Part shown: one piece after another, positions 14,698-56,680 of the stretch
How positions within the stretch are numbered: position 1 is the stretch's first letter
Layout of the letters: the number at the start of each line of letters is the position of its first letter
Source: an uncultured Gemmatimonadales bacterium
GTDB lineage: Bacteria > Gemmatimonadota > Gemmatimonadetes > JACCXV01 > JAHWKZ01
Assembly (NCBI GenBank): GCA_947259315.1
Contig: CAMYLR010000011.1
Span: forward strand, 72,177-136,176
Direction of reading: 5' to 3'
DNA length: 64,000 nucleotides
Made by a program: the position numbers and the translations under genes
The notes under the pieces: generated by a model
Databases searched by the model: none
What the model saw: the letters and a program-made list of their open reading frames with translations, nothing else
Told to the model about the DNA's origin: nothing

Positions 14698-14776
14698 CAG
14701 CTGCTGCTGGACAAGCGGTCGCCACCCCACCAAATTGGTAGTCATCACAGGCCTAACCTGACCAATGGAGGCGTGC

Positions 14777-24666: not shown

Positions 24667-24915
24667 GTGAGCGATACAATCGAGCGAACGGTGGGCGGCG
24701 TGACGGTACGCATCGATCGCCTCTTGTGCGTCGGTTTTGGTGACTGCATCGACGAAGCACCGCACGCGTTTGCGTTGGACGATGAGGGGATCGCGGAGTT
24801 TGGCGAGGCAGTCAACGGCGTCGACCGGGGGCAACTTATCCGCGCCTGCGAAGCGTGTCCGGTCGATGCCCTGTCGGTGCACGACGCCGACGGCAACCCG
24901 CTGGCGGCAGAGTGA
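24667..24915 (+). CDS. Small [4Fe-4S]/[3Fe-4S] ferredoxin (Fer4_13-like, 82 aa)
   Basis: A GTG start overlaps the cyclase stop. Motifs CVGFGDCIDEAP...ACEACPVDAL are typical of single-cluster actinobacterial/thermophilic ferredoxins. The stop overlaps the Mrp start (GTGA). Confidence 0.6.
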   Translation: MSDTIERTVGGVTVRIDRLLCVGFGDCIDEAPHAFALDDEGIAEFGEAVNGVDRGQLIRACEACPVDALSVHDADGNPLAAE

Positions 24916-25817
24916 CCGAGCGGACGCGCAAGGTACGGACGTACCACGAGGTAGCTGATCCGGACTCCGAGGATATCGTCGGCCAAATCGAGGCTCAGCG
25001 CTCGAAGTTGGTTGGCCGTTTGGCGGACATCGATCGATTGGTGGTCGTGGCCAGCGGCAAGGGCGGGGTGGGAAAGAGCGCGATAACCGCCAATCTTGCG
25101 GCGTTGATAGCCGAACGCGGGCGTCGCGTCGGCGCCATCGATGGGGATCTGCACGGCCCGTCGTTGGCTGCCATGCTCGGTGCCGAGCGTACACCGTTGG
25201 TCGTCTCCGAGCACGGAGTCGAGCCAGCCGTCGGTGCGGCCGGCGTCAAGCTGATGTCGATGGACCTCGTGCTGTCGGATGGTGCGCCGCTCGAGTGGCG
25301 TCAACCCGAGGTGGCTGGATTTGTGTACCAGAGCACCCTCGACACCGGTGCGGTGCGGGAACTGCTGGCCGACGTCGTGTGGGGTGAGCTCGATTTTCTG
25401 TTGATCGATGCACCGCCGGGTACCGACAAACTGGCGCGTTTGCTGGAGCTATTACCGGTGATCGACACACTATTGTTGGTCACGACGCCATCCGAGGCGG
25501 CTCGCCGAGCGGTGGGGCGCACTGTTCGACAAGCGCACGGGACGGGGATTTCGACGATCGGGCTGGTGGCTAACATGACCGCTCACGAGTGCCCCGACTG
25601 CGGTCGGTCGGAACCGATGTTCGAGGCCGACGGCGCCGCCCGGCTGGCGACCGAAACGGGACTCGAGCTGTGGGCCGAGGTGCCGTTCGAGCCCCGCTTC
25701 GCGGTGGCTACCGACGCCGGGCGGCCGCTCGTCCTCGAAGCGCCTGAGTCGCCAGCCGCACGCGAGCTCGGTCGCCTCGCGACCAAGCTCGCGAACGCAA
25801 CGAGCGACACCGCATGA
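24912..25817 (+). CDS. apbC: Mrp/NBP35/ApbC-family Fe-S cluster carrier ATPase
   Basis: Deviant Walker A VVVASGKGGVGKSAITANLA. Conserved CPxC cluster-bridging motif (HECPDCG). No N-terminal DUF59. The GTG start overlaps the ferredoxin stop. Confidence 0.8.
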   Translation: MTERTRKVRTYHEVADPDSEDIVGQIEAQRSKLVGRLADIDRLVVVASGKGGVGKSAITANLAALIAERGRRVGAIDGDLHGPSLAAMLGAERTPLVVSEHGVEPAVGAAGVKLMSMDLVLSDGAPLEWRQPEVAGFVYQSTLDTGAVRELLADVVWGELDFLLIDAPPGTDKLARLLELLPVIDTLLLVTTPSEAARRAVGRTVRQAHGTGISTIGLVANMTAHECPDCGRSEPMFEADGAARLATETGLELWAEVPFEPRFAVATDAGRPLVLEAPESPAARELGRLATKLANATSDTA

Positions 25818-26254
25818 AGTTCCTGTGTATCGACTGCGATGAGGTAATGACGTTCGCCGAACGCGAGCTACCCGGCGACGGCACGTTGGCGGCGGTGTTC
25901 GAGTGTCCTGATTGTGGGCGCGAGATGGCGATGCTCACGAACCCGATGGAGACCAAGCTGGTGAGCGGGCTCGGGATCCAGGTCGGAGGCCGCACCGTCC
26001 CCGATCAGCCGCTGGAGCTGGTGCGATCATCGGTGACCACCGGCGACGAGCAAGCGTTCGCCGATTTGCCATTAACGGCCGGAACGGTGCGCTGGAGTGA
26101 AGCCGCTGCTGAGCGACTCCAAGGCGTCCCGGGATTCGTGCGCGGCATGGTGAAGAAGATCTACGGCGAGTACGCCGTCGAACGGGGGATCGAGGAGATC
26201 ACTCCCGAGATCATGGACCGCGCCCGGCAAGATCTCGGGCTCGAGGGGATGTAG
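25814..26254 (+). CDS. Zn-ribbon protein with a C-terminal PCP_red (BchB/ChlB C-terminal-like) domain
   Basis: N-terminal CxxC...CxxC (CIDCDEVM...CPDCGREM). The C-terminal block WSEAAAERLQGVPGFVRGMVKKIYGEYAVERGIEEITPEIMDRAR closely resembles the BchB C-terminal domain (W-T-x-x-A-x-x-x-L-x-x-IP-x-FVRG-K-V-R). ATGA overlap with mrp. Confidence 0.55.
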   Translation: MKFLCIDCDEVMTFAERELPGDGTLAAVFECPDCGREMAMLTNPMETKLVSGLGIQVGGRTVPDQPLELVRSSVTTGDEQAFADLPLTAGTVRWSEAAAERLQGVPGFVRGMVKKIYGEYAVERGIEEITPEIMDRARQDLGLEGM

Positions 26255-26256
26255 CG

Positions 26257-26643
26257 ATGCTGCGGCGGGCCGAGCACGAGCCACACCGGGCTCACAAGTT
26301 CCGTCAGGCGGCGATCGCCTACCTCCACTACGCGGTGCTCTACGAGCTCGGTGTTTACGCGCTCTACGAGCAGGAGATGTTTCCCGCCAGCCGCGGCTCG
26401 CCGACGGTGTGGCTGGTTTTTGGCGTGGTCATCACCGGTCTCGTCGTATGGGGTCTGTGGTGGTGGCAGAACCGGTGGTTCGCGCGCGTCGTGTGGGTGG
26501 TGATGTCGTTGCGGCTCCCGGCGCTCATGGCGGGCGCCTTTTTGGGGACCGCGACCACCGTTGCTCCGGGTTTCTACCTCGCCGGCGGTATCGTCGTAAT
26601 CGCTGCGATGTGGATGATCGCTCGGGCAGCCTGGGACGTGTGA
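26257..26643 (+). CDS. Small membrane protein (3-4 TM)
   Basis: Hydrophobic segments with a W-rich loop (WGLWWWQNRWF). Lies immediately downstream of the PCP_red protein. Confidence 0.4.
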   Translation: MLRRAEHEPHRAHKFRQAAIAYLHYAVLYELGVYALYEQEMFPASRGSPTVWLVFGVVITGLVVWGLWWWQNRWFARVVWVVMSLRLPALMAGAFLGTATTVAPGFYLAGGIVVIAAMWMIARAAWDV

Positions 26644-26740: not shown

Positions 26741-28768
26741 ATGTACCACGAGATACTGGTTCCAGTAGACAATTCAGAGCACTCTGATTGGGCGGTCGAT
26801 CGTGCCATCGAGATCACCGGTCAATCCGGCGGCCGGATCACCGGTAACCACGTCTACGCCGCTCGCCTTCACGATGTTCGCTTCCGACAGCTCGAGACGG
26901 GACTTCCGGCTCAATTCCAGACACCCGAAGAGATCAAGCGACAGCGCAAGGTTCACGACAAGCTGATCGAGAAGGGCCTGCAGCTGATCAGCGATAGCTT
27001 TCTCGATCAGGTCGAGAAGCGGTGCCACGAGGCGGGCGTCGACCTCACGCGGCAGCTGCTCGAGGGGATCCACTACGAGGAGCTGATCCGCGAGGCCAAT
27101 CAAGGGGTGGGACGTCTGCCTTCGCTTATCGGGTTCGACCCCAACATCGCCGACAAGTACGACGGCGGTGACGCCGTTCGTTCCGACGTGCGCCTGGGCG
27201 CCGACGGTCGGATCGAGGCCGAGGAGGAGTCACTCGAGGAGAAGCTTGCGGGCACCTCGGAGCGGGCCTACGACCTGGTGGCGATCGGCGCCCACGGGCT
27301 CGGCCGGCAGCAGTTCAGCCAGCTCGGTGGGGTCGTCGCACGGGCGATCCGCGGCATAGAAAAGGACATCCTGATCGTCCGTGACGAGCGACCGATTCGC
27401 GACGGCAAGTACATGGTGTGCGTCGACGGCTCAGCCTACAGCTACAAGGCGATGCGTCACGCGCTCGAGCTGGCACAGATGTTCGGCGGCAAGTTGTTCG
27501 TTTGCAGCGCGTTCGACGTTGAGTACCACCACGTCGTCTTCCACAACATCAAGGATGTCTTGTCCGTACAGGCATCGAAGGTGTTCAAGTTCGAGGAGCA
27601 GGAAGAGCTCCACAACAACATCATCGACAAGGGGTTGCTCAAGCTCTGCCAAGCGAACATCAAGCGCGCCCAGGTCATGGCCGAGGAGTACCCGGACGTA
27701 GAGGTCGAAACCCAGATCCTGATCGGCAAGCCATTCCAGGTCGTGCTTCAGTGGGCCGAAGAGATCGAGCCGTCGCTGTTGATCTTCGCCCGCCACGGCA
27801 GCCATCGGATCGAGGGCACCGAATTGGGTTCGCAGGCCGAGAACTTGGCCCGCCTGGCACCTACCAACGTGCTGCTGATCGGCACCACCGAAGTTCATCC
27901 GGAAGAGATTCCGTGGATCGAAGAAGATGGGGAAACCGGTCTCGAATGGGCTCCCGAAGCGGAAGTCCGGATCCTTCGGGTACCGCCGTTCGCGCTCGGC
28001 ATCGCCCGCAAGGCGGTCGAGGAGTACGTGATCGAACGGTACGCTTCCAACGGCAACGGCTCGGGCGCGTTGCCGATAGTGACCAACGCGCGGCTCGATG
28101 AAGCGATCCAGAAACTGCTTCCCACGCACATGCAGCTCATCATGGGGATCGGCACCGCCGAAGAGCTGGCGCTAGCCGAGGTCAAGGCGGAAGAAGCGAT
28201 GAAGCGCACGGTGGTGGAAGGGCACGACGACGTTCCCGTGCCCGAGACGCGGATCGTGGAGGCCAAGTGCCCCTACACCGGCCACGTCGAACAACGACCG
28301 TGGACAGCTAGCGATCCGGTCGTTTGGACGCACGAGGCGCGGCAACGTCTCGAGCTCGTTCCGCTCATCGCGCGCCCATTGGCCCGCAACACCGTTGAGC
28401 GCTTTGCCCGCGATCACGGATGGTGGCGCATCACGACGCCGGTCATGGACGAGAACAAGCAGGCGATGATCGAGGCCGACGAGTTCGATCTCGATACGAT
28501 GCTCGTCATGTTCAAGGAGCTGCAGACGAAACAGATCAAAGCCGCGGCCGAAGGAGTCGACGGACTGACACCTGAGATGCGCAAGTTCATCGACGAGGCT
28601 AAGGAGGCCGGGGTCACGCGCTGTCCGATACGGGATATCGAGGCCGCTGCGGACAAGTGCCCGGTGGACTTCAAGACCGCTACCCCGGCCGAGGCCAAAG
28701 CGGCGATCGAGGCGGTCATGAAGGAGCAGAAGAGCGACGCCAACGGTGACGACCGGGACGAAGCTTGA
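26741..28768 (+). CDS. Tandem universal stress protein (UspA) domains fused to two PCP_red-like domains and a C-terminal Cys pair
   Basis: Usp starts (MYHEILVPVDNSEHSDWAVDRA, and YMVCVDGSAYSYKAMRHALELA with ...LLIFARHGSH...GS.AENLARLAPTNVLLIGT). Then two BchB-C-term-like blocks (WAPEAEVRILRVPPFALGIARKAVEEYVIERYAS and WTHEARQRLELVPLIARPLARNTVERFARDHGW). C-terminus ...TRCPIRDIEAAADKCPVDF. Confidence 0.6.
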   Translation: MYHEILVPVDNSEHSDWAVDRAIEITGQSGGRITGNHVYAARLHDVRFRQLETGLPAQFQTPEEIKRQRKVHDKLIEKGLQLISDSFLDQVEKRCHEAGVDLTRQLLEGIHYEELIREANQGVGRLPSLIGFDPNIADKYDGGDAVRSDVRLGADGRIEAEEESLEEKLAGTSERAYDLVAIGAHGLGRQQFSQLGGVVARAIRGIEKDILIVRDERPIRDGKYMVCVDGSAYSYKAMRHALELAQMFGGKLFVCSAFDVEYHHVVFHNIKDVLSVQASKVFKFEEQEELHNNIIDKGLLKLCQANIKRAQVMAEEYPDVEVETQILIGKPFQVVLQWAEEIEPSLLIFARHGSHRIEGTELGSQAENLARLAPTNVLLIGTTEVHPEEIPWIEEDGETGLEWAPEAEVRILRVPPFALGIARKAVEEYVIERYASNGNGSGALPIVTNARLDEAIQKLLPTHMQLIMGIGTAEELALAEVKAEEAMKRTVVEGHDDVPVPETRIVEAKCPYTGHVEQRPWTASDPVVWTHEARQRLELVPLIARPLARNTVERFARDHGWWRITTPVMDENKQAMIEADEFDLDTMLVMFKELQTKQIKAAAEGVDGLTPEMRKFIDEAKEAGVTRCPIRDIEAAADKCPVDFKTATPAEAKAAIEAVMKEQKSDANGDDRDEA

Positions 28769-30045
28769 TCTCGGCAGTACCGCATATCGTCGCTTGGAAC
28801 CTCACCCGGCGCTGCAATCTCGCCTGCGCCCATTGTTACATCGCGGCTGGATCGTGGCACGCGGCTGGAGAGGAGCTGCCGACCAGTGACTGCCACCGGA
28901 TCGTGGACGAGATCCTGGCGGTCAACCCGTCGCCGATGTTGATCCTGTCCGGCGGTGAGCCGCTGCTGAGGGATGACTTGGAATCGATCGCCGCTCGCGC
29001 TTCAGCCGGCGGTGCAACGGTCGTAGTCGGTACCAACGGCACTCGATTGACAGACGCGCGAATCGCGTCGCTCATGGCGGCCGGGGTGCAGGGTGTCGCG
29101 GTGAGCGTCGACTCCCTCGACCCTGTGTATCACGATCGTTTTCGACACGGCGCGGGCGCGCTCTCCGACACGTTGGCCGCGGTAGAGCGATTGAGCGACA
29201 ACCGCTTGGATCTCGTTCTGCAGACCACCGTGACCCGCGGGAATCAAGCCGAAATAGGACGCCTCGCGTCATTGGCCGCTGATTCCGGGGCGGTCGCTTT
29301 CAACGTCTACTTCGTTGTAGCCACTGGAAGAGCCGGCACCATGAAGGGGATGTCGACCGCGGAAAATGATGATGTCTTGACAGAGCTCGCCGCGCTCGAG
29401 CGCGAGTACCGCGGTCGGATGCTCGTTCGGTCGAAGTGCCAACCCCAGATCATGCGTCACGTCTACGATTCGGATCCCGAATCACCGCTGTTGAACTACG
29501 CCACTCGTTGCCCGTGCGGAGTGCAGTACTGTCGGATCACGCCCGACGGGAAAGTGACGCCGTGTCCCTACATGGAGGTCGTTGCCGGCGACTTGAGTGC
29601 GCAATCGTTCGGTGAGATCTGGAGCGACTCGCCGGTGTTTGGGGATCTGCGCAGAGGAGAGCTGGGTGGGAAGTGTGGTCGTTGCGGGTATCGTGAGATC
29701 TGCGGTGGATGCCGCGCGCGGGCCTTCGCCGAGACGGGCGACTATCTGGGACCGGACGGGTCGTGCGGCTATGAGCCTGATGGTGTCGAGTCGCCGGTGA
29801 CGCGGACGCGTGAGATCACCTACGGCACGCCAGCCCGGGCCGAGCTCGAGTGGTCACCCGAGGCGGCGGAACGAGTCGCTCGGATCCCGAGCTTCGTCCG
29901 CGGTGTCGTGACTCATCGCGTCGAGACCTTTGCCGCTGACCACGGTCACGATCGCGTTACCGCCGCGCTGCTCGACGAGGTGCGATCCCAGATGCCGATC
30001 GACTTCTCGAAACGCCGACCCTTCTTCAGCCGGAAGCGCGAGTGA
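28765..30045 (+). CDS. Radical SAM / SPASM-domain enzyme (NirJ/AhbD-like) with a C-terminal PCP_red-like extension
   Basis: CX3CX2C at the N-terminus (WNLTRRCNLACAHCY), typical of NirJ/AhbC/AhbD-type enzymes. GGEPLL. Cys-rich SPASM region (CPCGVQYC...CPYM...CGRCGYREICGGCRARAF...GSC). C-terminal WSPEAAERVARIPSFVRGVVTHRVETFAADHG. ATGA overlap with the upstream gene. Confidence 0.8.
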   Translation: MISAVPHIVAWNLTRRCNLACAHCYIAAGSWHAAGEELPTSDCHRIVDEILAVNPSPMLILSGGEPLLRDDLESIAARASAGGATVVVGTNGTRLTDARIASLMAAGVQGVAVSVDSLDPVYHDRFRHGAGALSDTLAAVERLSDNRLDLVLQTTVTRGNQAEIGRLASLAADSGAVAFNVYFVVATGRAGTMKGMSTAENDDVLTELAALEREYRGRMLVRSKCQPQIMRHVYDSDPESPLLNYATRCPCGVQYCRITPDGKVTPCPYMEVVAGDLSAQSFGEIWSDSPVFGDLRRGELGGKCGRCGYREICGGCRARAFAETGDYLGPDGSCGYEPDGVESPVTRTREITYGTPARAELEWSPEAAERVARIPSFVRGVVTHRVETFAADHGHDRVTAALLDEVRSQMPIDFSKRRPFFSRKRE

Positions 30046-30046: not shown

Positions 30047-31870
30047 ATGAGTAGTGTCGCGACGGTGTTTCGAATCGCCGCGGTGGGGAATCTGCCACGG
30101 CTACGTGGAACGCGTTCGTTGGTTCCTAGCTTTGGCGCGGTCGCGCTGGGGCTGCTTATGGCGCAATCGGGGTTCGCGCAGGAAGCCGGTATCGCGACCC
30201 GCGAGTACGGCGACTTCCCTTACATCGGCAGCCGAGTAGCGGTGTGGATAGCGGCGCAGGTCCACCTCATGTTCGCGGCGTTTGTTCTTGGCGTCCCGAT
30301 GTTCGCGATGGTCGCCGAGGCGATCGGCATCTTTGGTGGCGACAAGCGCTACGACCGACTGGCCAAGGAGTTTACCCGACTTCTGCTGATCGCTTACAGC
30401 GCGACCGCCATCTGGGGTGCGGTTCTGGTTTTCTTCCTGACCACGTTGTACCCCCGGTTCTGGGCTCACCTGTCGGAGATCTTCGAAGTCTCGATGTGGA
30501 TCTACGTCGGGCTCTTCTTCCTCGAGTCGTTCACTCTGTACCTCTACTACTACGGTTGGGATCGTTGGAAGGCAGGGACCGCGAAGTACGCGCACTGGGG
30601 GTTGGCGATCCTGCTCAACATCTGGGGCACGGCGGTCATGTTTATCGCCGACAGTTGGTTGAGCTACATGATGAGCCCGCCGGAAGTGATCACGGCCGAT
30701 CCATCGCCGGGGGTCGTTCAGTTGTGGAGCGCGATCAACAACGCCACGTGGATGCCGATCAACATCCATCGCATCATCGCCAACGTCGTGTTCGGGGGCT
30801 CGGTCGTCGGCGCTTACGCCGCGTACCGGTTCCTGGCCGCCAAGTCCGATGAAGAGCGCGCGCACTACGACTGGATGGGGTACGTCGGCAACTTCATCGC
30901 GATCGGGGCGCTCATCATCCTGCCGTTCGCCGGTTACTACCTGGGACGCGAGATCTACGAGTTCAACCAGCAGATGGGGATCACGATGATGGGTGGTTTC
31001 ATGAGCTGGTTGTGGATCATTCAGGCCTTCTTGATCGGCGTCTTGTTCTTGACCGGCAACTACTACTTGTGGGTCGGCATGACTCGCATCCCCGGTGCCG
31101 AGCGGTTTCTTCCGTACACCAAGTGGATGCTCGTAGTGTTGGTCATCGGCGTTATCGTGTGGGCCACGCCACACACGATGATCGCCAATCGTGCCGAGCT
31201 CGAGGCGATGGGCGGCTCTCACCATCCGTTCCTGGGTGTGTTGGGCGTCATGAGCGCCAAGAACACCGCGGTCAACCTGATGATTCTGACGACGTTCCTT
31301 TCGTTCCTGATGTACCGACGAGCCAACAAGCGCCCGGTGGTCGGGTGGGCCAAAACAGGGACAATCGTGCAGGCTTCGCTCTTCGCGTTATCCGCCGCGG
31401 TCGTGCTCTTCTACGGCGTCTATGGCTACTTCGTGACAGCGATCGTGCGGATCGGCTTCAGCGTCTACCAGGTGCTGGCGGTGCTGGGGACGATCATCGC
31501 CGTCATGGTGCTCGATGTGTTGATGCTGCGCGGCTCCGAATCGCGAGGCGCGATTCAGTGGGGCAACATGCCGGCGCGATCGCAATACGCACTGTTTGTC
31601 TTGGTGGTCACGTTTACCTGGCTCATGGGATTGATGGGCTTCGCGCGCAGCGGCATTCGCCAACACTGGCACGTTTGGGAGGTCATGCGCGACACCAGTC
31701 AGTGGGCGGCCACCCCAGCGTTGGGACCCGCGGCTCAGGTGATCAGCGTGTGCGTTCTGATCTTCCTCGTGCTGATCGCATTCATCTTCTGGCTTGGCGG
31801 GTTGGTGGAGAAACCGCAGCTAGTACCGGAACAACCGGCACCTGGAGCTTCCGGAACCGTGACGAGCTAA
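30047..31870 (+). CDS. Cytochrome bd family subunit-I (CydA)-like membrane protein, with no CydB partner
   Basis: ATG immediately after the rSAM stop. The CydA signature region is conserved (...AQVHLMFAAFVLGVPMF..., MWIYVGLFFLESFTLYLYYYGWDRW versus E. coli [24 protein letters not shown]). About 12-14 TM helices. No cydB-like gene follows. Confidence 0.75.
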   Translation: MSSVATVFRIAAVGNLPRLRGTRSLVPSFGAVALGLLMAQSGFAQEAGIATREYGDFPYIGSRVAVWIAAQVHLMFAAFVLGVPMFAMVAEAIGIFGGDKRYDRLAKEFTRLLLIAYSATAIWGAVLVFFLTTLYPRFWAHLSEIFEVSMWIYVGLFFLESFTLYLYYYGWDRWKAGTAKYAHWGLAILLNIWGTAVMFIADSWLSYMMSPPEVITADPSPGVVQLWSAINNATWMPINIHRIIANVVFGGSVVGAYAAYRFLAAKSDEERAHYDWMGYVGNFIAIGALIILPFAGYYLGREIYEFNQQMGITMMGGFMSWLWIIQAFLIGVLFLTGNYYLWVGMTRIPGAERFLPYTKWMLVVLVIGVIVWATPHTMIANRAELEAMGGSHHPFLGVLGVMSAKNTAVNLMILTTFLSFLMYRRANKRPVVGWAKTGTIVQASLFALSAAVVLFYGVYGYFVTAIVRIGFSVYQVLAVLGTIIAVMVLDVLMLRGSESRGAIQWGNMPARSQYALFVLVVTFTWLMGLMGFARSGIRQHWHVWEVMRDTSQWAATPALGPAAQVISVCVLIFLVLIAFIFWLGGLVEKPQLVPEQPAPGASGTVTS

Positions 31871-31874
31871 AACG

Positions 31875-32669
31875 ATGTGGGCGACGAACCTCAAGATTCT
31901 GGGCATCGTGCTCGGCACACTCGCCCTGTACACGTTGATCGCCAACGGCATCCCCCAGGTCGAGTCCGAGGTACCGCAGGAGTTGTCGTTCACAGGCGAA
32001 GTGAGCGCGGCCGAGTTGGTGGCGGCGGGTGAAGAGTTGTACGCCGGGGCTGGCGGCTGCACCGCCTGCCACGGGCTCGGCACGCGGGCGCCCAACTTGT
32101 TGAGCGACGCCGGCGGTCAAGGTGCGATCGGCGCGCGCTGCGGCCAGCGCGTAGAGGGTGAATCGTGCAAGGAGTATCTGTATCGATCGATGATCGAGCC
32201 CAATGTGTTTGTCGTTGAGGGGTTTCAGCCGATCATGCCGGACATGCGACGGACGCTGTCGGAGGTTCAGATCTGGGCCATGATCGCCTATCTGCAAAGC
32301 GTGGGGGGCGAGGTGACGGTCACCGGCGACGACATCGCGGCTGCGCAACCTGCCGGTGAAGACGAGGCGTCGGATTCAGGTGCGGGAGCGATGATCGTAG
32401 CGACCACTGATCCGCTCGAGTTGCTGCGTGAGATGCAGTGCCTGGCTTGTCACTTGCTAGGCGACGAGGGGGCTCAAGTGGGTCCGCCTCTCGATGACCT
32501 CGGAAGCCGCCTGACGACTGATCAGATTCGTGAGTCGATCCTCGACCCCAACGCGGAGTTGGCGGCGGGCTACGAACAGTTCGGCGGTATGATGCCGGCC
32601 AACTTCGGTCAAAGGCTGACCGCCGAGCAGCTCGAGGTGATCGTGTCGTATCTCGGATCCCAAAAGTGA
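31875..32669 (+). CDS. Membrane-anchored dihaem c-type cytochrome
   Basis: N-terminal TM anchor. Two CxxCH sites (CTACHGL, CLACHLL), each with a downstream Met-containing segment. Confidence 0.7.
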   Translation: MWATNLKILGIVLGTLALYTLIANGIPQVESEVPQELSFTGEVSAAELVAAGEELYAGAGGCTACHGLGTRAPNLLSDAGGQGAIGARCGQRVEGESCKEYLYRSMIEPNVFVVEGFQPIMPDMRRTLSEVQIWAMIAYLQSVGGEVTVTGDDIAAAQPAGEDEASDSGAGAMIVATTDPLELLREMQCLACHLLGDEGAQVGPPLDDLGSRLTTDQIRESILDPNAELAAGYEQFGGMMPANFGQRLTAEQLEVIVSYLGSQK

Positions 32670-32676
32670 GCGTGAC

Positions 32677-33480
32677 TTGAGCATCAATCGGTATCTGCGC
32701 CATCCGTTTTGGCAGGCGATTCTGGTCCTAGTGATCGCGTACGTGTTGATCGAGTACGGCATCCCGTATTTGCCTCCGCTAATCGGGATCAGCAGCGCGC
32801 CGGTACCACAGTCGGTCGTGTTGCAGTACATGCTGACCGTGTTGGCGGGAGTACTGATCTGGGTCAGCGACAATGAGGAGCGTTGGGCGCGGTTTCGCGA
32901 GCCGATCCGCGCGACGCTCGTCGATCGCGACAAGCGAGTGTTACGGATTGCGCTACTCGTCATCGTCCCGCTGCTGACCGGATGGCTCACTTTCCGCGCC
33001 GTGCGTCAGACCGTGGCCGCGCCCCCCAGCTTGCGGTCGATCCATCCGGCACCACCGTCGTCGATCACGTTTCGTGGCCAAACGATGCAACTCGCTGGGC
33101 TGGAGAACCCGCTGCGCGAAGGCGACTTGATGGCTGAGGCCTATCGTGTCGGGAAGCGCGTTTACTACCAGAACTGTCTGCCGTGTCATGGCGACGCGCT
33201 GAGCGGAGACGGGCACTACGCGCACGGATTCACGCCCGCACCGCTGGCGTTTACCGGTTCGAGCACGATCGCTCAGCTGACCGAGAGTTTTGTGTTCTGG
33301 CGGATCGCCAAGGGCGGCCCGGGACTTCCACGCGAGGGCACGCCGTGGAACTCGGCCATGCCGGCGTGGGAGGACATCCTGAGCGAGGACGAGATCTGGT
33401 CGGTGATCGTGTTTCTGTACGAGCAGGCAGGCGTCTCGCCCCGGACTTGGGAAGAAGCCGAGGGGTCTGGTGAGCACTAA
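32677..33480 (+). CDS. Membrane-anchored monohaem c-type cytochrome
   Basis: Three N-terminal TM helices, then CLPCHGDALSGDGHYA and ...AMPAWEDILSEDEIWSVIVFLYEQ, a class-I cytochrome c signature. Confidence 0.65.
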   Translation: MSINRYLRHPFWQAILVLVIAYVLIEYGIPYLPPLIGISSAPVPQSVVLQYMLTVLAGVLIWVSDNEERWARFREPIRATLVDRDKRVLRIALLVIVPLLTGWLTFRAVRQTVAAPPSLRSIHPAPPSSITFRGQTMQLAGLENPLREGDLMAEAYRVGKRVYYQNCLPCHGDALSGDGHYAHGFTPAPLAFTGSSTIAQLTESFVFWRIAKGGPGLPREGTPWNSAMPAWEDILSEDEIWSVIVFLYEQAGVSPRTWEEAEGSGEH

Positions 33481-35017
33481 GGGGTTTGCGATAGGGGTCG
33501 CGTTGAGCGCATTTGTCGCGGCCGCGCCGGCGGCCGCTCAGGAAACGCCTGTCGGAAAGGCGATATACGATAAATGGTGCGCCGAATGCCACGGCGAGGA
33601 CGGTGCAGGCGACGGCTCGGCAGCAGCCTACATGTTGCCGCAGCCGAGGGACTTCACCACCGGGCTGTACCAGATTCGCACCACGCCCAGCGGCGAGCTT
33701 CCCACCGATGATGACATCCTCAGAATGATCGACGAAGGCATGCCCGGGTCGGCGATGCCAGGCTGGAAAGAGTACCTGAGCGACACCGAGCGCAACGACC
33801 TGGTTCAGTACCTGAAGACCTTTTCACCGTTCTTCGAAGACGAAGCCCCGTCGCCGGTCGAGTACGGTGGACCGCCTGGAGTGAACGAGGAGGGCCTCGC
33901 CGAGGGGAAAGAGTTCTACGACAAGATCGAGTGCTGGAAGTGCCATGGACAGGCTGGCCGCGGAGACGGTCCGTCGGCGCCGACTCTCGAGGACGATTGG
34001 GAGCTTCCGATCCGAGCCACAGACTTGACCGAGGGTTGGAACTTCAACGGCGGCCACACGACGGAAGCGATCTTCGCCCGGCTGATGACGGGGCTCAACG
34101 GAGCGCCGATGCCGTCGTTCGCAGACCTGATCGACGCTGAGTTCATGACCGAGGAACAGCTGTGGCGCGTTGCGCAGTACGTGAAGAGCCTCTCTCCCGA
34201 GACGCCTGAGGTTCGAGAGGTCGTTCGGGCGGCTCTGGTCGAGACGCTTCCCACGAGTGTCGACGATCCGGCGTGGGATGCAATCGAGAGGTTTTACATC
34301 CCTCTCGTCGGGCAAATAATCGTCGAGCCGAGGTGGTTCGCGCCGACGGTCGACGGCGTGTGGGCGCAGGCCGCTCATGACGCCCAGCGCGTCGCGTTGC
34401 GCCTAACGTGGAACGATCCATCGGAGAGCCCGAATCCGGAATGGGAGGAGTGGCGGCAGCGCGTGGTCAGCGTCATGGAGCCAAGCGTCGAGGCCACTGA
34501 CGAGTTGCTATCCGATGCGCTTACGGTTCAGTTCCCAACCACGATCCCCGAGGGCATGAAGCGTCCCTATTTCTTGATGGGTGCTCAGGACGAGCCGGTG
34601 TACTTGTTGAGTTGGAACAGCGGTGGCGGCGCAACCGAAGCGCTCGGTCGCGGGATGAACGCGATCGAGCCGATCGGGGGTGCCTCGACGTTGACCACTG
34701 AGTCGACGTTCGATGATGGACAATGGCGGCTCTATTTGAGTCGCGATCTGATCACTGAGAGTGCAGATCGGCTGGCTATCGAGACTGGCCGTCCGATTCC
34801 CATGGCGATCTTCGCCTGGGACGGTTCGAACGGCGAGTCCGGTACGCAGGGCGCGATAAGCACGTGGTACTTCTTGTATCTCGATCAGCCGACGGAGAAC
34901 ATTACGTACGCGTTTCCGGTAGTGGCGGTGCTTTTGACAGCCGTGCTGGGCTTGGTCATCATTGCGCGCGCTCAGCGCGCAACCGGCGGCGGTGGCCCTG
35001 AACCCGGGTCTGATTAA
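33470..35017 (+). CDS. Dihaem c-type cytochrome (515 aa) with a C-terminal TM anchor
   Basis: Signal peptide. CAECHGEDGAGDG...MPGW and CWKCHGQAGRGDG...MP, resembling CcoP/c4-like tandem haem domains. The ~300-aa C-terminal domain is of unknown type, and a TM helix (FPVVAVLLTAVLGLVIIA) closes the protein. A GTG start overlaps the previous gene. Confidence 0.7.
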   Translation: MSTKGFAIGVALSAFVAAAPAAAQETPVGKAIYDKWCAECHGEDGAGDGSAAAYMLPQPRDFTTGLYQIRTTPSGELPTDDDILRMIDEGMPGSAMPGWKEYLSDTERNDLVQYLKTFSPFFEDEAPSPVEYGGPPGVNEEGLAEGKEFYDKIECWKCHGQAGRGDGPSAPTLEDDWELPIRATDLTEGWNFNGGHTTEAIFARLMTGLNGAPMPSFADLIDAEFMTEEQLWRVAQYVKSLSPETPEVREVVRAALVETLPTSVDDPAWDAIERFYIPLVGQIIVEPRWFAPTVDGVWAQAAHDAQRVALRLTWNDPSESPNPEWEEWRQRVVSVMEPSVEATDELLSDALTVQFPTTIPEGMKRPYFLMGAQDEPVYLLSWNSGGGATEALGRGMNAIEPIGGASTLTTESTFDDGQWRLYLSRDLITESADRLAIETGRPIPMAIFAWDGSNGESGTQGAISTWYFLYLDQPTENITYAFPVVAVLLTAVLGLVIIARAQRATGGGGPEPGSD

Positions 35018-35085
35018 CGTCTAGCCGACATTTAAGGGGTCGATAGCATCGTTGCATTGATCAACCACACATGAAGGAGAGGGAT

Positions 35086-35913
35086 ATGAACTTTTCACTG
35101 AGGCAGATCCTCGCCTTGGTCGTGGTGTCGGGGATCTCGATCGCCACCGCTTGTGGTGGTGGTGGCGAGCCAACCGATGACGGGGCCGACGGCGACGCTC
35201 CGGCAGCGGCCGGTCCGGTCGTAAGCCCGGACAGTGCGGCCATGATCACCGGGACGGTTTCGTTCGAAGGCACGGCGCCGGCGGCCGAGCCGATCGATAT
35301 GAGCGAGGAGCCGACTTGCGCCGAGAAGCACCCCGATGGCGCCATGCGCCAACTGGTCATGGTTGCGGGCGGTGGGTTGGCCAACGTCTATGTCTACGTG
35401 AAGTCGGGGTTGGGGGACCGGAGTTTCCCGACTCCGTCGGCGCCGGTGACGCTGGACCAGGACGGCTGCGAATACATGCCGCACGTCTTGGCGATACAGG
35501 TAGGGCAATCGCTGGAGATCAAGAACAGCGATGGGATCCTCCACAACATCAACACCCAGCCCACCGTGAACCGCGGTTTCAACATCAGCCAGCCGGTCGT
35601 GATGGAAACGTCGCGGGAGTTTTCGCAACCGGAAGTCATGATCCCGGTCAAGTGTGATGTCCACGGTTGGATGGAAGCGTTCATCGGTGTCCAGGCTCAC
35701 CCGTACGCGGGTGTCAGTGGCGCCGACGGATCGTTCTCGTTGGCGGATCTGCCTCCCGGTGAGTACGAAATCGAAGCCTGGCATGAGTTGTACGGGACGC
35801 AGTCCCAAACGGTCACCGTAGGGGTCAAAGAGACCGCCGAAGTGAGCTTCACGTTCAGCTCCGATATGGCCGGGAACCACGTGCCTCTAGGCGAACCGCT
35901 CGTTCTCAGATGA
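35086..35913 (+). CDS. Lipoprotein with an amicyanin-like type-1 copper (cupredoxin) domain and a C-terminal CarboxypepD_reg-like beta-sandwich
   Basis: ATG 35086 lies 6 nt after AAGGAG. Lipobox IATAC and a Gly/Asp-rich linker. Cupredoxin fold (VLAIQVGQSLEIKNSDGILHNI), with the His, then the C-X2-H-X2-M loop (KCDVHGWM), ~37 residues later, as in amicyanin. C-terminal GADGSFSLADLPPGEYEIEAWHE. The stop overlaps the coxB start (ATGA). Confidence 0.65.
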   Translation: MNFSLRQILALVVVSGISIATACGGGGEPTDDGADGDAPAAAGPVVSPDSAAMITGTVSFEGTAPAAEPIDMSEEPTCAEKHPDGAMRQLVMVAGGGLANVYVYVKSGLGDRSFPTPSAPVTLDQDGCEYMPHVLAIQVGQSLEIKNSDGILHNINTQPTVNRGFNISQPVVMETSREFSQPEVMIPVKCDVHGWMEAFIGVQAHPYAGVSGADGSFSLADLPPGEYEIEAWHELYGTQSQTVTVGVKETAEVSFTFSSDMAGNHVPLGEPLVLR

Positions 35914-36668
35914 ACTGGAGTTGGCTGATGCCCGAGCCGGCGTCGACGTTTGGCGCCGGCATCGACTCGATCTACTACATCATCCTGTGGATCACCGGGG
36001 CGATCTTCGTGCTCGTCGAGACCGCGTTGATCGTGTTCATCATACGGTATCGGCATCGCGAGGGTCGGGTCGCCGCTTACTCCCACGGCAACAAGAAAGC
36101 CGAAATCGTATGGACAGTGATCCCGTTCATTTTGGTGCTGTTTATCGTCTACGCCAGCAACGACATCTGGTTGGAGGTCAAACGAGCCGACCAAGGCGGT
36201 GCGGCTCCGGCGGACGCGCTACCGCTCAGGGTAGTCGCTAAGCAATTCGAATGGAACGTGACGTACCCGGGCCCGGACGGAGAGCTCGACACCGCTGACG
36301 ATTTCGTCAAGCGAAACCAGCTTCACGTCCCCATCGGAAGGGCGGTTCGGATCGATCTCGGATCCGAAGACGTAATTCACTCGTTCTTCCTGCCGGATTT
36401 TCGCGTCAAGCAGGACGCCGTGCCGGGGATGACGATCCCGGTCTGGTTCGAGGCCACACGAACCGGAGAGTTCCCGTTGGCGTGCGCTGAACTGTGTGGG
36501 TTGGGGCACTATCGTATGCGCGCCTCGCTGACGGTCCACGAAGCTGCCGATTTCGATCTTTGGCAGTCCCAAGAGATCGCCGCCAGCGGCTCGCCGACTG
36601 GTGCCAGTGAGATCGATACCGAAAGAGCAAATGAAGCCGAGATCAGCGAAGGGGAGGAGAGCGCATGA
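35910..36668 (+). CDS. coxB: Cytochrome c oxidase subunit II (CuA, no fused cytochrome c domain)
   Basis: Two TM helices. CuA site H...CAELCGLGHYRM. Length 252 aa with no CxxCH, so aa3-type. Confidence 0.85.
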   Translation: MNWSWLMPEPASTFGAGIDSIYYIILWITGAIFVLVETALIVFIIRYRHREGRVAAYSHGNKKAEIVWTVIPFILVLFIVYASNDIWLEVKRADQGGAAPADALPLRVVAKQFEWNVTYPGPDGELDTADDFVKRNQLHVPIGRAVRIDLGSEDVIHSFFLPDFRVKQDAVPGMTIPVWFEATRTGEFPLACAELCGLGHYRMRASLTVHEAADFDLWQSQEIAASGSPTGASEIDTERANEAEISEGEESA

Positions 36669-38470
36669 GTACGACCCAGCTGTTGGCGCCCAACGTAACC
36701 GCGCAGCACTGGGCCGATCCGAGCCATCCGGATGATCGCCCATTCATCCGGAGATACATCTTTTCAACCGATCACAAGACGATCGGAAACCAGTTCATGT
36801 TTATGAGCTTGTTCTTTCTGCTGGTTGGCGGAGCGCTGGCGATGATGATCCGTTGGCAGCTCGGTTGGCCGGGTCAGCCGATGCCCGGGGGAGGGGTGCT
36901 GCCCGAGACGATGGCGCCGGGCGGAATCCTGTTGCCCGAGTTCTACAACTCGCTGGTCACCATGCACGGCACGTTCATGATCTTCTTTGCCATCATGCCC
37001 TTGCTGGTAGGGATGTTCGGCAACTGGCTAATCCCGCTCCATGTCGGTGCTTCTGACATGGCGTTCCCGCGGCTCAACATGATGTCGTTTTGGTCGGCTG
37101 TCCCCGCGGGGTTCATCATGCTGGCCAGCTTCGTCGTCGAAGGTGGAGCCGCCGGGGCGGGGTGGACGGCTTATCCGCCACTGAGCGCGGTGCCGGAGTA
37201 CAGTGGGGTCTCGACCGGACAGCAACTTTGGTGTGTGAGCCTGATCATCCTCGGGTTCTCTTCGCTGATGGGGGCGGTCAACTACATCACTACGATCGTC
37301 AATATGCGCGCTCCCGGTATGACCTGGATGCGCATGCCGTTGCCGATCTGGTCGCTCTTTATCACCGCGATCTTGATCCTGCTGGCGATCCCGATCCTGG
37401 CTGGCGCAGCGATCATGTTGCTGTTCGACCAGACGATCGGCACGACGTTCTTCCTGCCCGAGGCCGGTGGTCAGCCGCTACTGTGGCAGCACCTGTTCTG
37501 GTACTTCGGCCACCCCGAGGTCTACATCCTGATCCTACCAGCGATGGGCGTCGCGTCCGAAGTGATCGCAAATGGATCACGCAAGCCGATCTTTGGTTAT
37601 CCCGCGATGGTCGGCGCGATCGTGGCTATCGCGTTCCTCGGTTGGATCGTGTGGGGACACCACATGTTCCAGAGCGGGATGAACCCGCTTCTGGGATCCA
37701 GCTTTATGCTGTCGACGATGATCATCGCCGTGCCTTCAGCGATCAAAGTGTTCAACTGGCTGGGTACGATTTGGCGCGGCGACATTCACTTCCATACGCC
37801 TATGTTGAACGCTCTAGCTTTCGTCGGGATGTTCGTGATCGGTGGATTGTCGGGCGTGTTCATGGCGTCGACGCCGGTCGACATTTACATCCACGACACG
37901 TACTTCATCGTCGCGCACCTCCATTACGTGCTGTTTGGCGGCAGCCTGTTCGCGATCTTCGCCGGGATCTACTTCTGGTTCCCGAAGTTCTTCGGCCGGA
38001 TGTTGAGCCCAACCCTCGGCAAGATTCACTTCGCACTCACGTTCGTGTTTTACAACCTGGTGTTCTTTCCGATGCATAATCTCGGGTTGGGCGGCATGAT
38101 GCGGCGCATCTATGACCCCAATCAGTACGGCTTCCTCGAGCCGCTTCAGCCGATGAACACGTTCGTGTCGGTGTTCGCGTTGGCACTCGGTGTGAGCCAG
38201 CTGGTGTTCTTCTTCAACATCCTCTGGTCGCTGTGGCGCGGAGAGAAAGCGCCAGAGAATCCGTGGCGGTCGAACTCGTTGGAGTGGAGCCTGGCGTCGC
38301 CGCCGCCGCACGGAAACTTCGAAGCGATGCCGGCGGTGTATCGCGGGCCATACGAGTACAGCTACCCCGGTCGAGGCGAGGACTTCTGGCTCCAGGGTGA
38401 GCCACCGGACGGCGGAGCGGTCCATGCGCCCACCGGTGGGGCACCGGTGGGCGAGGGGGTGCCCCAATGA
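36665..38470 (+). CDS. coxA: Cytochrome c oxidase subunit I (haem-copper oxidase, A-type)
   Basis: GHPEVYILILPAMG, WAHHMF-like HHMF block, ~12 TM helices; 601 aa. Confidence 0.9.
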   Translation: MSTTQLLAPNVTAQHWADPSHPDDRPFIRRYIFSTDHKTIGNQFMFMSLFFLLVGGALAMMIRWQLGWPGQPMPGGGVLPETMAPGGILLPEFYNSLVTMHGTFMIFFAIMPLLVGMFGNWLIPLHVGASDMAFPRLNMMSFWSAVPAGFIMLASFVVEGGAAGAGWTAYPPLSAVPEYSGVSTGQQLWCVSLIILGFSSLMGAVNYITTIVNMRAPGMTWMRMPLPIWSLFITAILILLAIPILAGAAIMLLFDQTIGTTFFLPEAGGQPLLWQHLFWYFGHPEVYILILPAMGVASEVIANGSRKPIFGYPAMVGAIVAIAFLGWIVWGHHMFQSGMNPLLGSSFMLSTMIIAVPSAIKVFNWLGTIWRGDIHFHTPMLNALAFVGMFVIGGLSGVFMASTPVDIYIHDTYFIVAHLHYVLFGGSLFAIFAGIYFWFPKFFGRMLSPTLGKIHFALTFVFYNLVFFPMHNLGLGGMMRRIYDPNQYGFLEPLQPMNTFVSVFALALGVSQLVFFFNILWSLWRGEKAPENPWRSNSLEWSLASPPPHGNFEAMPAVYRGPYEYSYPGRGEDFWLQGEPPDGGAVHAPTGGAPVGEGVPQ

Positions 38471-39096
38471 GCGAGGCGGCAGCCATTCACGCCCACGCTC
38501 CGCGCCCCATGGAGGGGATCCGGGTCTACAACGTGAAGCTCGGAATGTGGGTCTTCCTGCTGTCCGAGGTGATGTTTTTCAGCGGGCTGATCGGCGCGTA
38601 CATCATCCTGCGGTTTGCAAACCCAGAACAATGGGCGGCGCCGGGTGAGGTGCTAAACGTCACGCTGACGGCGTTCAACACGTTTATGCTGATCTGTAGC
38701 AGTGTAACGATGGTGAAGGCCTTTGCCGCGATCGAGCACGGCGATCAGGCCGGGCTCAAGAGGTGGCTGCTGGCGACGATCGTTCTGGGCGCGGCGTTTG
38801 TCGGCATTCAGGTCTTCGAGTACATCAAGCTCGCCGAGCACGGGTTTGTGCCGATGGCCAGCCAGTACGCTGCGGACGGCGGCGGGCCACTGTATGGCTC
38901 CACGTTCTACACGATGACCGGCTTCCACGGTGCGCACGTTACGATCGGCGTGCTGTGCCTCATCTTCACGTTGGTCAAGGCGCTACGCGGTCACTACACC
39001 GAGGAGTACTACTCGGGCGTGGAGATCATGGGGTTGTACTGGCACTTCGTGGATCTGGTTTGGATTATCTTGTTCACGATCGTTTACTTGATCTAG
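38467..39096 (+). CDS. coxC: Cytochrome c oxidase subunit III
   Basis: Subunit III motifs (FFSGLIGAYIILR..., GFHGAHVTIGVLCLI, MGLYWHFVDLVWIILFTIVYLI). Confidence 0.85.
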   Translation: MSEAAAIHAHAPRPMEGIRVYNVKLGMWVFLLSEVMFFSGLIGAYIILRFANPEQWAAPGEVLNVTLTAFNTFMLICSSVTMVKAFAAIEHGDQAGLKRWLLATIVLGAAFVGIQVFEYIKLAEHGFVPMASQYAADGGGPLYGSTFYTMTGFHGAHVTIGVLCLIFTLVKALRGHYTEEYYSGVEIMGLYWHFVDLVWIILFTIVYLI

Positions 39097-39105: not shown

Positions 39106-39375
39106 GTGGCTAACAAGAAACCGAACTACTACTTGGTCTGGTTGTACCTGTTGGTCCTGACGATCGCCGAGGTGGGAGTAGCCTTCTTGTCGGGGCTACC
39201 GTTCGAGGTGCTGGTCTTCATCCTGCTGTCGTTGGCGATCTGGAAAGCGGCGCTCGTAGCGATGTACTACATGCACCTTCGGTTCGAGCCGCCCCGGCTC
39301 GTTATCATCGCTCTGGCTCCCCTTCCGCTGGCGGTTCTGATCACGATCGTCGTGGTGACGATGGAGGTCTTCTGA
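39106..39375 (+). CDS. coxD: Prokaryotic cytochrome c oxidase subunit IV (COX4_pro)
   Basis: 89 aa, 3 TM. YYLVWLYLLVLTIAEV...MYYMHLRFE is typical of the bacterial subunit IV family. Confidence 0.7.
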   Translation: MANKKPNYYLVWLYLLVLTIAEVGVAFLSGLPFEVLVFILLSLAIWKAALVAMYYMHLRFEPPRLVIIALAPLPLAVLITIVVVTMEVF

Positions 39376-40655: not shown

Positions 40656-40668
40656 GCGCGCGCACCCC

Positions 40669-46102: not shown

Positions 46103-46180
<78 letters not shown>

Positions 46181-46214
46181 TGCAAACAAGCTTGCCCCAA
46201 ACCGTTTCCCGCCG

Positions 46215-52069: not shown

Positions 52070-52084
52070 CCGGTCCCGGTTCTC

Positions 52085-55702: not shown

Positions 55703-55709
55703 CGCGACC

Positions 55710-56660: not shown

Positions 56661-56680
56661 CGCCGGAAAGTAGGGAGTCG

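Follow-up and report, generated by a model that had tools for sequence, protein, structure and literature searches.

A CydA-like cytochrome module of the OR-N2 type, encoded upstream of the aa3 oxidase in Gemmatimonadota, and its possible complex-III-like role

What might a homologue of CydA, subunit I of the cytochrome bd oxidases, do when its gene is followed by genes for c-type cytochromes and not by cydB? The question is raised by a 64,000-nucleotide (nt) stretch of a contig from an uncultured Gemmatimonadales bacterium (CAMYLR010000011.1, positions 72,177 to 136,176; hereafter the window), in which an initial annotation, made from the DNA letters alone, had singled out such a gene and three cytochrome genes behind it. 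We report here that these genes, together with a gene for a blue-copper protein, form a recurrent module whose helix count, signature residues and operon type, as read from the sequence and a structural model, match the OR-N2 subfamily of the cytochrome bd superfamily, and that in Gemmatimonadota this module stands directly before the genes of a cytochrome c oxidase. As to what it does, we tentatively favour, at somewhat short of even confidence, a complex-III-like menaquinol:cytochrome c/copper oxidoreductase that would feed the oxidase encoded next to it.

The genes concerned are the following:

30047..31870, + strand: CydA-like membrane cytochrome b of the OR-N2 type, 607 amino acids (aa), predicted core of the module (PF01654, 75.5 bits)
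31875..32669, + strand: dihaem cytochrome c, 264 aa, with one N-terminal transmembrane (TM) anchor and two CxxCH motifs
32677..33480, + strand: monohaem cytochrome c, 267 aa, with three N-terminal TM segments and one CxxCH motif
33470..35017, + strand: dihaem cytochrome c with an EB_dh (ethylbenzene dehydrogenase gamma-like) domain and a C-terminal TM anchor, 515 aa, the equivalent of the 'alternative NxrC' (PF00034/PF13442 twice; PF09459)
35071..35913, + strand: p280, a probable lipoprotein of 280 aa with a type-1 copper cupredoxin domain and a CarboxypepD_reg beta-sandwich (PF13620, 35.8 bits)
35910-36668, + strand: coxB, read from its translation, with the CuA motif H...CAELCGLGHYRM and no CxxCH
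36665-38470, + strand: coxA, read from its translation
38467-39096, + strand: coxC, read from its translation
39106-39375, + strand: coxD, read from its translation

The initial annotation was right in its outline of the locus. The four co-directional + strand open reading frames (ORFs) at 30047-35017 are real and encode, by their Pfam matches and CxxCH motifs, a CydA homologue followed by three c-type cytochromes, and only 1 nt separates the CydA-like start from the radical SAM gene that precedes it (28765-30045). Its central point, a CydA homologue lacking CydB and tied to c-type cytochromes, also holds: Pfam scans detected no CydB (PF02322), bc1 or alternative complex III (ACIII) protein among the 50 predicted proteins of the window, and the gene order recurs elsewhere, as described below. 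The junctions are tight, with 1 nt between the radical SAM and CydA-like genes, 4 nt between the latter and the gene for the 264-aa cytochrome, 7 nt between the 264-aa and 267-aa cytochromes, an 11-nt overlap between the 267-aa and 515-aa cytochromes, and 4-nt overlaps at p280/coxB, coxB/coxA and coxA/coxC. Altogether 14 genes on a single strand run from an upstream gene for an Mrp-type ATPase to coxD, and the 13 that start with the zinc-ribbon gene (25814) are closely packed or overlapping; most of their junctions are overlaps or gaps of less than 10 nt, the wider ones being 53 nt before the cupredoxin gene and 97 nt before a gene for a universal stress protein (USP). No terminator-like site was found on the + strand between 31870 and 39375, in a scan whose promoter and terminator counts were at chance level.

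The CydA-like protein matches the Pfam family Cyt_bd_oxida_I over residues 62-583, well above the cutoff of 26.2 bits, and contains no CxxCH motif. Direct sequence comparison with solved CydA chains gives weak similarity, in the N-terminal third only (Geobacillus, E 4e-12; E. coli bd-I, E 1e-4). An AlphaFold2 model built on 136 homologues (predicted local distance difference test score, pLDDT, 85; predicted template-modelling score, pTM, 0.85) gives a topology of 13 TM helices plus an N-terminal hydrophobic helix, and the only convincing structural matches that Foldseek returned for it were ten CydA chains of bd oxidases, at a probability of 1.0. In the model, the position of the Q-loop, between the helices bearing the His186 and Met393 equivalents, is taken by two extra TM helices (320-347 and 355-373) and a short loop (374-400). 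NCBI contains an identical protein of 607 aa (P0001); the closest homologues, at up to 95% identity, come from Gemmatimonadota and Longimicrobiales metagenome-assembled genomes (MAGs), and over 6,800 homologues were found, related proteins occurring in at least 8 phyla.

Which of the functional residues of CydA are retained bears directly on what the protein could do. In E. coli numbering, the haem b558 ligands H186 and M393 correspond to H241 and M402 (the latter with N406), H19, the haem ligand of the O2 site, to H73, and the proton-channel residues E107 and H126 to E160 and H183; conserved tyrosines of a Y-x-Y pair lie close by (Y167, Y169), and the tryptophan of GRQPW, near the active-site haems, is W541. 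Two residues are replaced: E99, of the O2 site and proton delivery, by Y153, and the haem b595 ligand E445 by S535. The canonical ExGRQPW motif persists as SGIRQHW. Across 136 Gemmatimonadota and Nitrospirota sequences all the mapped residues are invariant save Y169 and W541, the latter being at least 90% conserved; the substituted S535 and Y153 are thus both invariant themselves, as are H393, H542, K405, N410, R425, R468, Q475, R534 and R538. H73, H241 and M402 are all predicted to lie near the periplasmic face. The initial annotation had proposed a check of the haem ligands, and its outcome is divided: the His19, His186, Met393 and Glu107 equivalents are kept, which makes a redox role likely, whereas those of Glu99 and Glu445 are not, and therefore the canonical bd-type di-haem O2 site is not preserved. 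The two motifs that it had quoted as the haem b558 region need to be reassigned. AQVHLMF carries the His19 equivalent H73 and FFLESF...YYYGWDRW is the Glu99/Glu107 helix; both fall in the four-helix bundle that bears the O2-reducing haems in canonical bd oxidases, the b558 ligands being H241 and M402. On the predicted periplasmic side there are also three histidines with no counterpart in canonical CydA, H376 (about 90% conserved) and the invariant H393 and H542, which could be ligands of a further haem or metal.

These features allow the protein to be placed within the bd superfamily, which Murali, Gennis and Hemp (2021; bioRxiv 10.1101/2021.01.16.426971) divide into qOR, OR-C and OR-N. The supplement of that study describes OR-N2 subunits with 14 helices, whose operon also encodes an EbdC homologue and several cytochromes c, and the study lists OR-N for Gemmatimonadota. 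Membership of the superfamily follows from the PF01654 match and the CydA fold. Within it, the protein has about 14 helices (13 TM plus the N-terminal one), no CxxCH in subunit I and no Q-loop, and it matches all the residues of the OR-N2 reference row (H99, Y183, E190, Y197, Y199, H213, H269, M430/N434, S563 and W569) at a constant offset of 26-30 residues, the mapping being by offset and motif. The operon arrangement, too, is kept, in 65/65 Gemmatimonadota loci and in 21 of 23 long metagenome loci. These counts come from two surveys, one of 80 Gemmatimonadota loci from species-representative genomes and one of 80 mixed metagenome loci. Identity clustering places the protein at 33-50% identity to the bd-like proteins of Nitrospirota and Nitrospinota; the homologues further include a more distant E/Q-variant subfamily (the P0159 group).

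Two other placements were tried and rejected. Like OR-C, in which haem c domains are fused to the C-terminus of CydA, the protein is a bd-superfamily member without the quinol site and with a tie to cytochrome c; however, the OR-C subunit I has 8 TM helices and a CxxCH of its own, whereas the 607-aa subunit here has none and shows the OR-N2 residue pattern. With the canonical CydAB(X) enzymes (qOR1-3; PDB 5DOQ, 6RKO and 7OSE) it shares the CydA fold, the b558 His/Met pair, the His19 equivalent, Glu107, His126 and R-Q-x-W. It differs from them in having neither CydB nor CydX in the window, c-type cytochromes and a cupredoxin being its partners instead, and in having TM helices for the Q-loop, four extra TM helices, Ser for Glu445 and Tyr for Glu99. 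A canonical bd oxidase whose CydB is encoded elsewhere is likewise rejected, the Q-loop and Glu445 being lost family-wide.

The protein family, the operon type and its occurrence in Gemmatimonadota were all already on record. The novelty that the initial annotation implied for the system does not stand: besides the OR-N2 operon type in the supplement of Murali et al., a 'bd-like oxidase' of nitrite oxidisers and anammox bacteria has been discussed since 2010-2013. Its remark that no function has been assigned to such clades agrees with the literature up to 2025 (PMC12342949, PMC10839748). The phylogenomic account of OR-N2 is without the linkage to cox, the cupredoxin subunit and the radical SAM/PCP_red/Mrp genes that we describe below, and we found no account of these three features in the searchable literature.

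Judged by gene content and order, the module is the orthologue of the bd-like module of Nitrospira, Nitrospina and anammox bacteria. Lücker et al. (2013; PMC3578206) described the same type of protein in the nxr clusters, i.e., those of nitrite oxidoreductase (NXR), of Nitrospina, Nitrospira and Kuenenia, with 14 helices, conserved haem b ligands, helices in place of the Q-loop and loss of the quinol residues; the orthologous module is named bd-like_3/alt_NxrC_2 in Nitrospira, and the 'alternative NxrC' lies in or near nxr clusters (PMC3578206, PMC6606698). The NXR-linked module has orthologous genes in the same order, and copper proteins and a small zinc-finger/PCP_red protein also accompany the nitrite-oxidiser version. 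The two settings differ in the host, here a Gemmatimonadota MAG, and in the neighbour, here an aa3 oxidase, whereas Nitrospira is reported to be without haem-copper oxidases (PMC6606698).

The most informative comparison is with Nitrospira sp. Kam-Ns4a (locus L084), where a 652-aa bd-like gene, 50% identical at the protein level, is followed by homologues of all three cytochromes in the same order: the 264-aa protein at 25% identity, the 267-aa protein at 37% (E 5e-55), and the 515-aa protein at 31% (a 593-aa homologue, E 4e-58). It was the paralogue P0381 that led to the informative Nitrospira locus; two further ones, P0396 (N. tepida) and P0313, are solitary genes and uninformative. The order bd-like protein, cytochrome c, cytochrome c, dihaem c-EB_dh is also found in an Anaerolineae locus (L085) and in a second Gemmatimonadota paralogue (L087), and a Methylomirabilales locus (L086) has the same module interrupted by inserted Mrp and PCP_red genes. 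None of these four loci has cox genes nearby. The metagenome loci give the same picture: all three cytochromes are present in 13/13 of those spanning 20 kb or more and in 21/23 of those spanning 14 kb or more, none of these with cox nearby.

Natural gene fusions point the same way. In P0122 (889 aa), residues 616-886 align to the whole of the 264-aa dihaem cytochrome including its TM anchor (E 8e-44), and P0430 (1019 aa, from Nitrospinota) similarly aligns to both the CydA-like protein and the dihaem cytochrome c; in these fusions the cytochrome's own TM anchor acts as the linker. By the Rosetta-stone principle they suggest that the CydA-like protein and the dihaem cytochrome are subunits of one complex. 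A third protein, P0125 (784 aa), is likely another such fusion, as judged from its CxxCH count and source annotation.

These data bear on a possibility that the initial annotation had named as refuting its interpretation, namely that the cytochromes belong with the adjacent oxidase. In its full form, the three would serve that oxidase only, and the CydA-like protein would be an unrelated or non-redox relic. The adjacency of coxBACD in the window and in all informative Gemmatimonadota loci would be in keeping with it. However, the same cytochromes follow the bd-like gene where there is no cox nearby, including in Nitrospira with its reported lack of haem-copper oxidases, the fusions join the CydA-like protein to the dihaem cytochrome, and all the haem ligands of the CydA-like protein are invariant. 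We therefore regard this explanation as extremely improbable, and an assignment of the cytochromes to cox alone is rejected on the synteny of the Nitrospira locus, the metagenome loci and the fusions P0122 and P0430; the three cytochromes belong to the CydA-like protein and not to cox.

One MAG (JBHIAV01, Gemmatimonadota K_2_bin.6) has two OR-N2 modules, one cox-linked as in the window (L078) and one without cox (L087). The clade of the latter is broadly distributed, in Rokubacteria, Binatia, Chloroflexi, Nitrospinota and Brocadiales, and the two paralogues probably differ in role.

The three cytochromes together place five c haems on three membrane-anchored subunits, with CxxCH counts of 2 (264 aa), 1 (267 aa) and 2 (515 aa); their membrane segments and haem numbers are as initially annotated, according to a CxxCH scan and the hydrophobic segments. 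Those of the 515-aa protein lie at both termini and are read as a signal peptide and a C-terminal anchor. Distal Met121 and Met240 are conserved in the 264-aa cytochrome and Met228 in the 267-aa one. For the dihaem part of the 515-aa protein the match is to PDB 6H5L, chain B (E 1.8e-60), in a Kuenenia hydroxylamine oxidoreductase (HAO) entry; this chain is presumably the dihaem partner of a Kuenenia HAO-like enzyme. The 264-aa cytochrome is homologous to Kuenenia Kustd1711 (PDB 7ZS0, E 2.2e-23), whose haems titrate near +350 mV (PMC11791136).

The 515-aa protein also carries an EB_dh domain that had been missed at first (PF09459, 55 bits; TIGR03477, 86 bits, below the TIGR03477 cutoff). Its presence raises the alternative that the module is a hub which docks a soluble periplasmic dehydrogenase at the membrane and collects its electrons: EB_dh would play the gamma-subunit role known from type II dimethyl sulfoxide-reductase enzymes, the electrons would be passed on to the aa3 oxidase, and the CydA-like protein would be mainly anchor and wire. 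Such a role has been proposed for NXR in nitrite oxidisers, the orthologue being the 'alternative NxrC' near nxr (PMC3578206, PMC6606698), and the Methylomirabilales module adjoins a molybdopterin oxidoreductase with a TorD-like chaperone. However, Pfam scans of the 50 ORFs of the 64-kb window found no nxr genes, no molybdopterin oxidoreductase and no molybdoenzyme alpha or beta genes, and there was no sign of molybdoenzyme genes in the 80 Gemmatimonadota loci, as screened with 14 window proteins only. Moreover, the EB_dh domain (residues 266-459) shows neither a conserved Met/Lys nor a conserved His pair for haem b, no such column exceeding about 60-75% conservation among 109 homologues, and a role as anchor leaves the strict conservation of the haem ligands and polar TM residues of the CydA-like protein unexplained. 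We consider this alternative improbable.

The gene after the cytochromes encodes p280, for which Pfam reports CarboxypepD_reg alone. Nevertheless, H158, C195, H198 and M201 are at least 90% conserved among 102 homologues, and a search with the family profile finds amicyanins and, at E 1e-6, a blue (type 1) copper domain protein, with these ligands in register. At the N-terminus a Cys follows a hydrophobic stretch (ATAC). Pfam-annotated CarboxypepD_reg genes adjoin or lie near the bd-like gene in loci L084-L087, and tblastn finds p280 homologues in 38/80 metagenome loci. The ligand set, the profile match and the recurrence beside bd-like genes identify p280, at the level of sequence, as the type-1 copper cupredoxin subunit or carrier of the bd-like module, and a periplasmic electron carrier is its likely role.

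What, then, would these carriers serve? The four genes that follow, coxBACD, read as an aa3-type haem-copper cytochrome c oxidase. In all 59 Gemmatimonadota loci that extend far enough downstream, they stand directly after the module, coxA being on the same strand. CoxB (35910-36668) has the CuA motif and no haem c domain; hence the aa3 oxidase needs an external donor, and the same operon offers a blue-copper protein and five c haems. A second haem-copper oxidase operon, of the caa3 type, lies on the minus strand at 40338-44206: its CoxB (43121-44206) has a C-terminal cytochrome c domain by Pfam, and it further includes a CoxA ORF (41238-43427, the true start probably being later), coxC (40669-41241) and a subunit IV-like ORF (40338-40655).

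The conserved synteny with cox in Gemmatimonadota leads us to lean to a quinone-linked function. We propose that the CydA-derived membrane cytochrome b would hold at least two b haems, one at H241/M402 and one at H73, and would be joined by the anchored dihaem c, the 3-TM monohaem c, the anchored dihaem c-EB_dh and the type-1 copper lipoprotein as further subunits. The CydA-like subunit would take electrons from menaquinol, the c haems and the copper protein would relay them to CuA of the aa3 oxidase, and the module and the oxidase might form a fixed supercomplex. Nitrite oxidisers and anammox bacteria could run the module in reverse, or use its EB_dh subunit to dock NXR. Family membership, the set of subunits, the conserved ligands, the synteny and the fusions are observed; quinol oxidation, the direction of electron flow, the supercomplex and the roles of the accessory genes are what we infer here.

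Several lines of evidence point towards this complex-III-like role. First, the layout of the operon parallels ACIII-oxidase clusters, ACIII genes being commonly found just upstream of oxidase genes (PMC12342949). The analogy is one of working only: ACIII (ActABCDEF) is also a non-bc1 membrane complex with several anchored c haems, upstream of a haem-copper oxidase and with a blue-copper carrier (auracyanin), but there is no homology, since by Pfam the operon is without NrfD-type ActC/F, Fe-S ActB and pentahaem ActA domains, and its core is a haem-b-binding CydA fold. Second, the canonical di-haem O2 site is not preserved. Third, haems at about +350 mV, as in the Kuenenia homologue, suit an acceptor of quinol electrons and a donor to the oxidase. 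Fourth, among 326 Gemmatimonadota genomes Zheng et al. (2022; PMC9426454) found petB in 23%, ACIII in less than 10% and caa3-type oxidase in 74%, and suggested that novel complex III modules are possible in the phylum. The tables of that study have cydA in 173 genomes and cydB in 95; the excess fits widespread orphan CydA-like genes, with the incompleteness of MAGs as a caveat. Finally, an ACIII-like, quinone-linked or reverse-electron-transport role was proposed earlier for the orthologous module (Lücker et al. 2013, PMC3578206; Mundinger et al. 2019, PMC6606698).

A good deal also weighs against it. No quinol site was identified in the CydA-like protein, where the AlphaFold2 model has two TM helices in place of the Q-loop, and the canonical quinol-binding residues are reported as lost in the family (PMC3578206; Murali et al. 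2021, bioRxiv 10.1101/2021.01.16.426971). Invariant E160 and H183, the Glu107 and His126 of the proton channel, would be expected of an electrogenic O2/NO reductase more than of a quinol oxidase working at the periplasmic side. OR-N1 and OR-N5 lie downstream of bc- or ACIII-like genes (Murali et al. 2021; PMC12342949), positions that cast the family as electron-accepting, on the oxidase side. Nitrospira strains without a canonical oxidase must respire O2 by some OR-N enzyme (PMC12342949), and reviews hold OR-N enzymes to be putative cytochrome c oxidases while stressing the absence of experiment (PMC10839748). Lastly, the module hardly ever adjoins cox outside this clade of Gemmatimonadota, coxA being nearby in just 3/80 metagenome loci.

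The main rival is the lead interpretation of the initial annotation, in which the module would be a terminal reductase, dependent on cytochrome c, for O2 or possibly NO. The c haems on the periplasmic side and the copper protein would then give electrons to b558 (H241/M402), from which these would reach a catalytic haem at H73, with protons drawn from the cytoplasm via E160 and H183; in Gemmatimonadota the enzyme would be a second oxidase, co-expressed with the aa3 oxidase and drawing on the same donors. The literature on Nitrospira and Nitrospina usually sees OR-N enzymes in this way, and cytochrome c is held to be their donor (PMC10839748). It agrees with the homology to an O2-reductase family (PF01654, Foldseek), with the invariance of the H19, E107 and H126 equivalents, and with the invariant H393 and H542 and nearly invariant H376, which could form a new metal or haem site. 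In addition, a NIDE0901-like OR-N2 is the proposed oxidase of Nitrospirales without other oxidases (PMC12342949), and by transcript level the orthologous genes rank in the top 40 of N. moscoviensis (PMC6606698).

However, no member keeps Glu99 or the haem b595 ligand Glu445, and the operon has no second CydA-like or CydB partner, unlike the proposed CydAA' oxidase of OR-N2 plus OR-N1. The anaerobic Brocadiales have close homologues. In the many Gemmatimonadota with neither bc1 nor ACIII (PMC9426454), an operon of two terminal oxidases and no quinol oxidase would provide nothing to reduce its cytochromes, and O2 reduction has never been measured for any OR-N enzyme (PMC10839748). We accordingly see a terminal reductase as unlikely, though still a serious contender to the complex-III-like reading; a small remaining share of probability goes to some other function.

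Upstream of the CydA-like gene lie five genes that complete the single-strand run:

24855..25817, + strand: Mrp/NUBPL-type P-loop ATPase, probably an assembly factor (PF10609, ParA/NUBPL, 210 bits; NCBIfam MrpORP, 200 bits, under its cutoff)
25814..26254, + strand: small protein with a zinc ribbon (CxxC...CxxC) and PCP_red (PF08369, 53.5 bits); its start overlaps the Mrp stop by 4 nt
26257..26643, + strand: hydrophobic protein, 128 aa, with no Pfam or NCBIfam match
26741..28768, + strand: 675-aa protein with two USP domains (PF00582, 113.6 bits) and PCP_red (PF08369, 56.3 bits)
28765..30045, + strand: radical SAM/SPASM enzyme of the tetrapyrrole-modifying AhbD/NirJ clade, with PCP_red at the C-terminus (Radical_SAM 83, SPASM 36.5, PCP_red 46 bits)

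In Gemmatimonadota this neighbourhood is nearly constant: the radical SAM gene is the next gene upstream of the bd-like gene in 78/79 loci, and the Mrp, zinc-ribbon and USP genes are present in all 57 loci with at least 6 kb of upstream sequence, while tblastn finds the 128-aa hydrophobic protein in about one third. Among NCBIfam models the radical SAM enzyme scores highest with NirJ2 (269 bits) and the haem b synthase AhbD (264 bits), in both cases short of the equivalog cutoff of 500 bits. PCP_red is the tetrapyrrole 'lid' domain of the protochlorophyllide reductase BchB, and for this reason the set may be a dedicated system for modifying or delivering haem. On domain content, then, the Mrp ATPase and the three PCP_red-domain proteins, including the AhbD/NirJ-like enzyme, are probably cytoplasmic maturation or haem-handling factors. 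A haem biosynthesis cluster elsewhere in the window, at 46119-54003, comprises hemA, hemC, hemD, hemB, a chlorite-dismutase-like coprohaem decarboxylase (chdC/hemQ), hemL, hemE and hemH; it indicates a coproporphyrin-dependent pathway, and the AhbD-like enzyme is therefore not needed for ordinary haem b synthesis.

The accessory genes are also seen beside other bd-like modules, in loci L084, L085, L086, L088, L135, L146, L148, L156 and L162. Mrp adjoins the module in the Anaerolineae (L085) and Methylomirabilales (L086) loci; PCP_red proteins are near the bd-like genes in both of these and in Nitrospira L084, where the protein is a small one. Full-length matches to the zinc-ribbon PCP_red protein occur in L085, L086, L148 and L156, and the USP-PCP_red protein is found in L085 and in 9/80 metagenome loci. 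Matches covering at least 60% of the radical SAM-PCP_red protein are present in 10/80 metagenome loci, and at least one accessory gene in 15/80. No paper linking PF08369 proteins to bd-like enzymes was found in the searchable literature. The recurring radical SAM/PCP_red/Mrp set may point to an undescribed route of haem maturation.

Taken to its full extent, the complex-III-like reading would make the CydA scaffold a third kind of quinol:cytochrome c oxidoreductase beside bc1/b6f and ACIII, working in an obligate supercomplex with the aa3 oxidase, serving as the 'missing complex III' of Gemmatimonadota, and having its haems made or inserted by the dedicated radical SAM/PCP_red/Mrp system. This combined claim we regard as doubtful. 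If the predicted quinol oxidation holds, the textbook list of quinol:cytochrome c oxidoreductases would gain a member, and nitrite oxidisers and anammox bacteria a concrete candidate for reverse electron transport. OR-N bd-like complexes are abundant and highly expressed in the main nitrite oxidisers and are the sole candidate terminal oxidase in some Nitrospira, and none has yet been purified or assayed. Most Gemmatimonadota genomes have cytochrome c oxidases and no recognisable complex III. The phylum includes culturable aerobic heterotrophs and may be a more tractable host group, and since the module shares one operon with the aa3 oxidase, quinol oxidation by it is a testable prediction.

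Two further parts of the window are unrelated to the module. A secreted S8 subtilase of 1512 aa with five PKD domains is encoded at 14765-19303, and the first genes of a dcw cell-wall cluster (mraZ, mraW, ftsI, murE, murF, mraY and murD) occupy 55241-63728.

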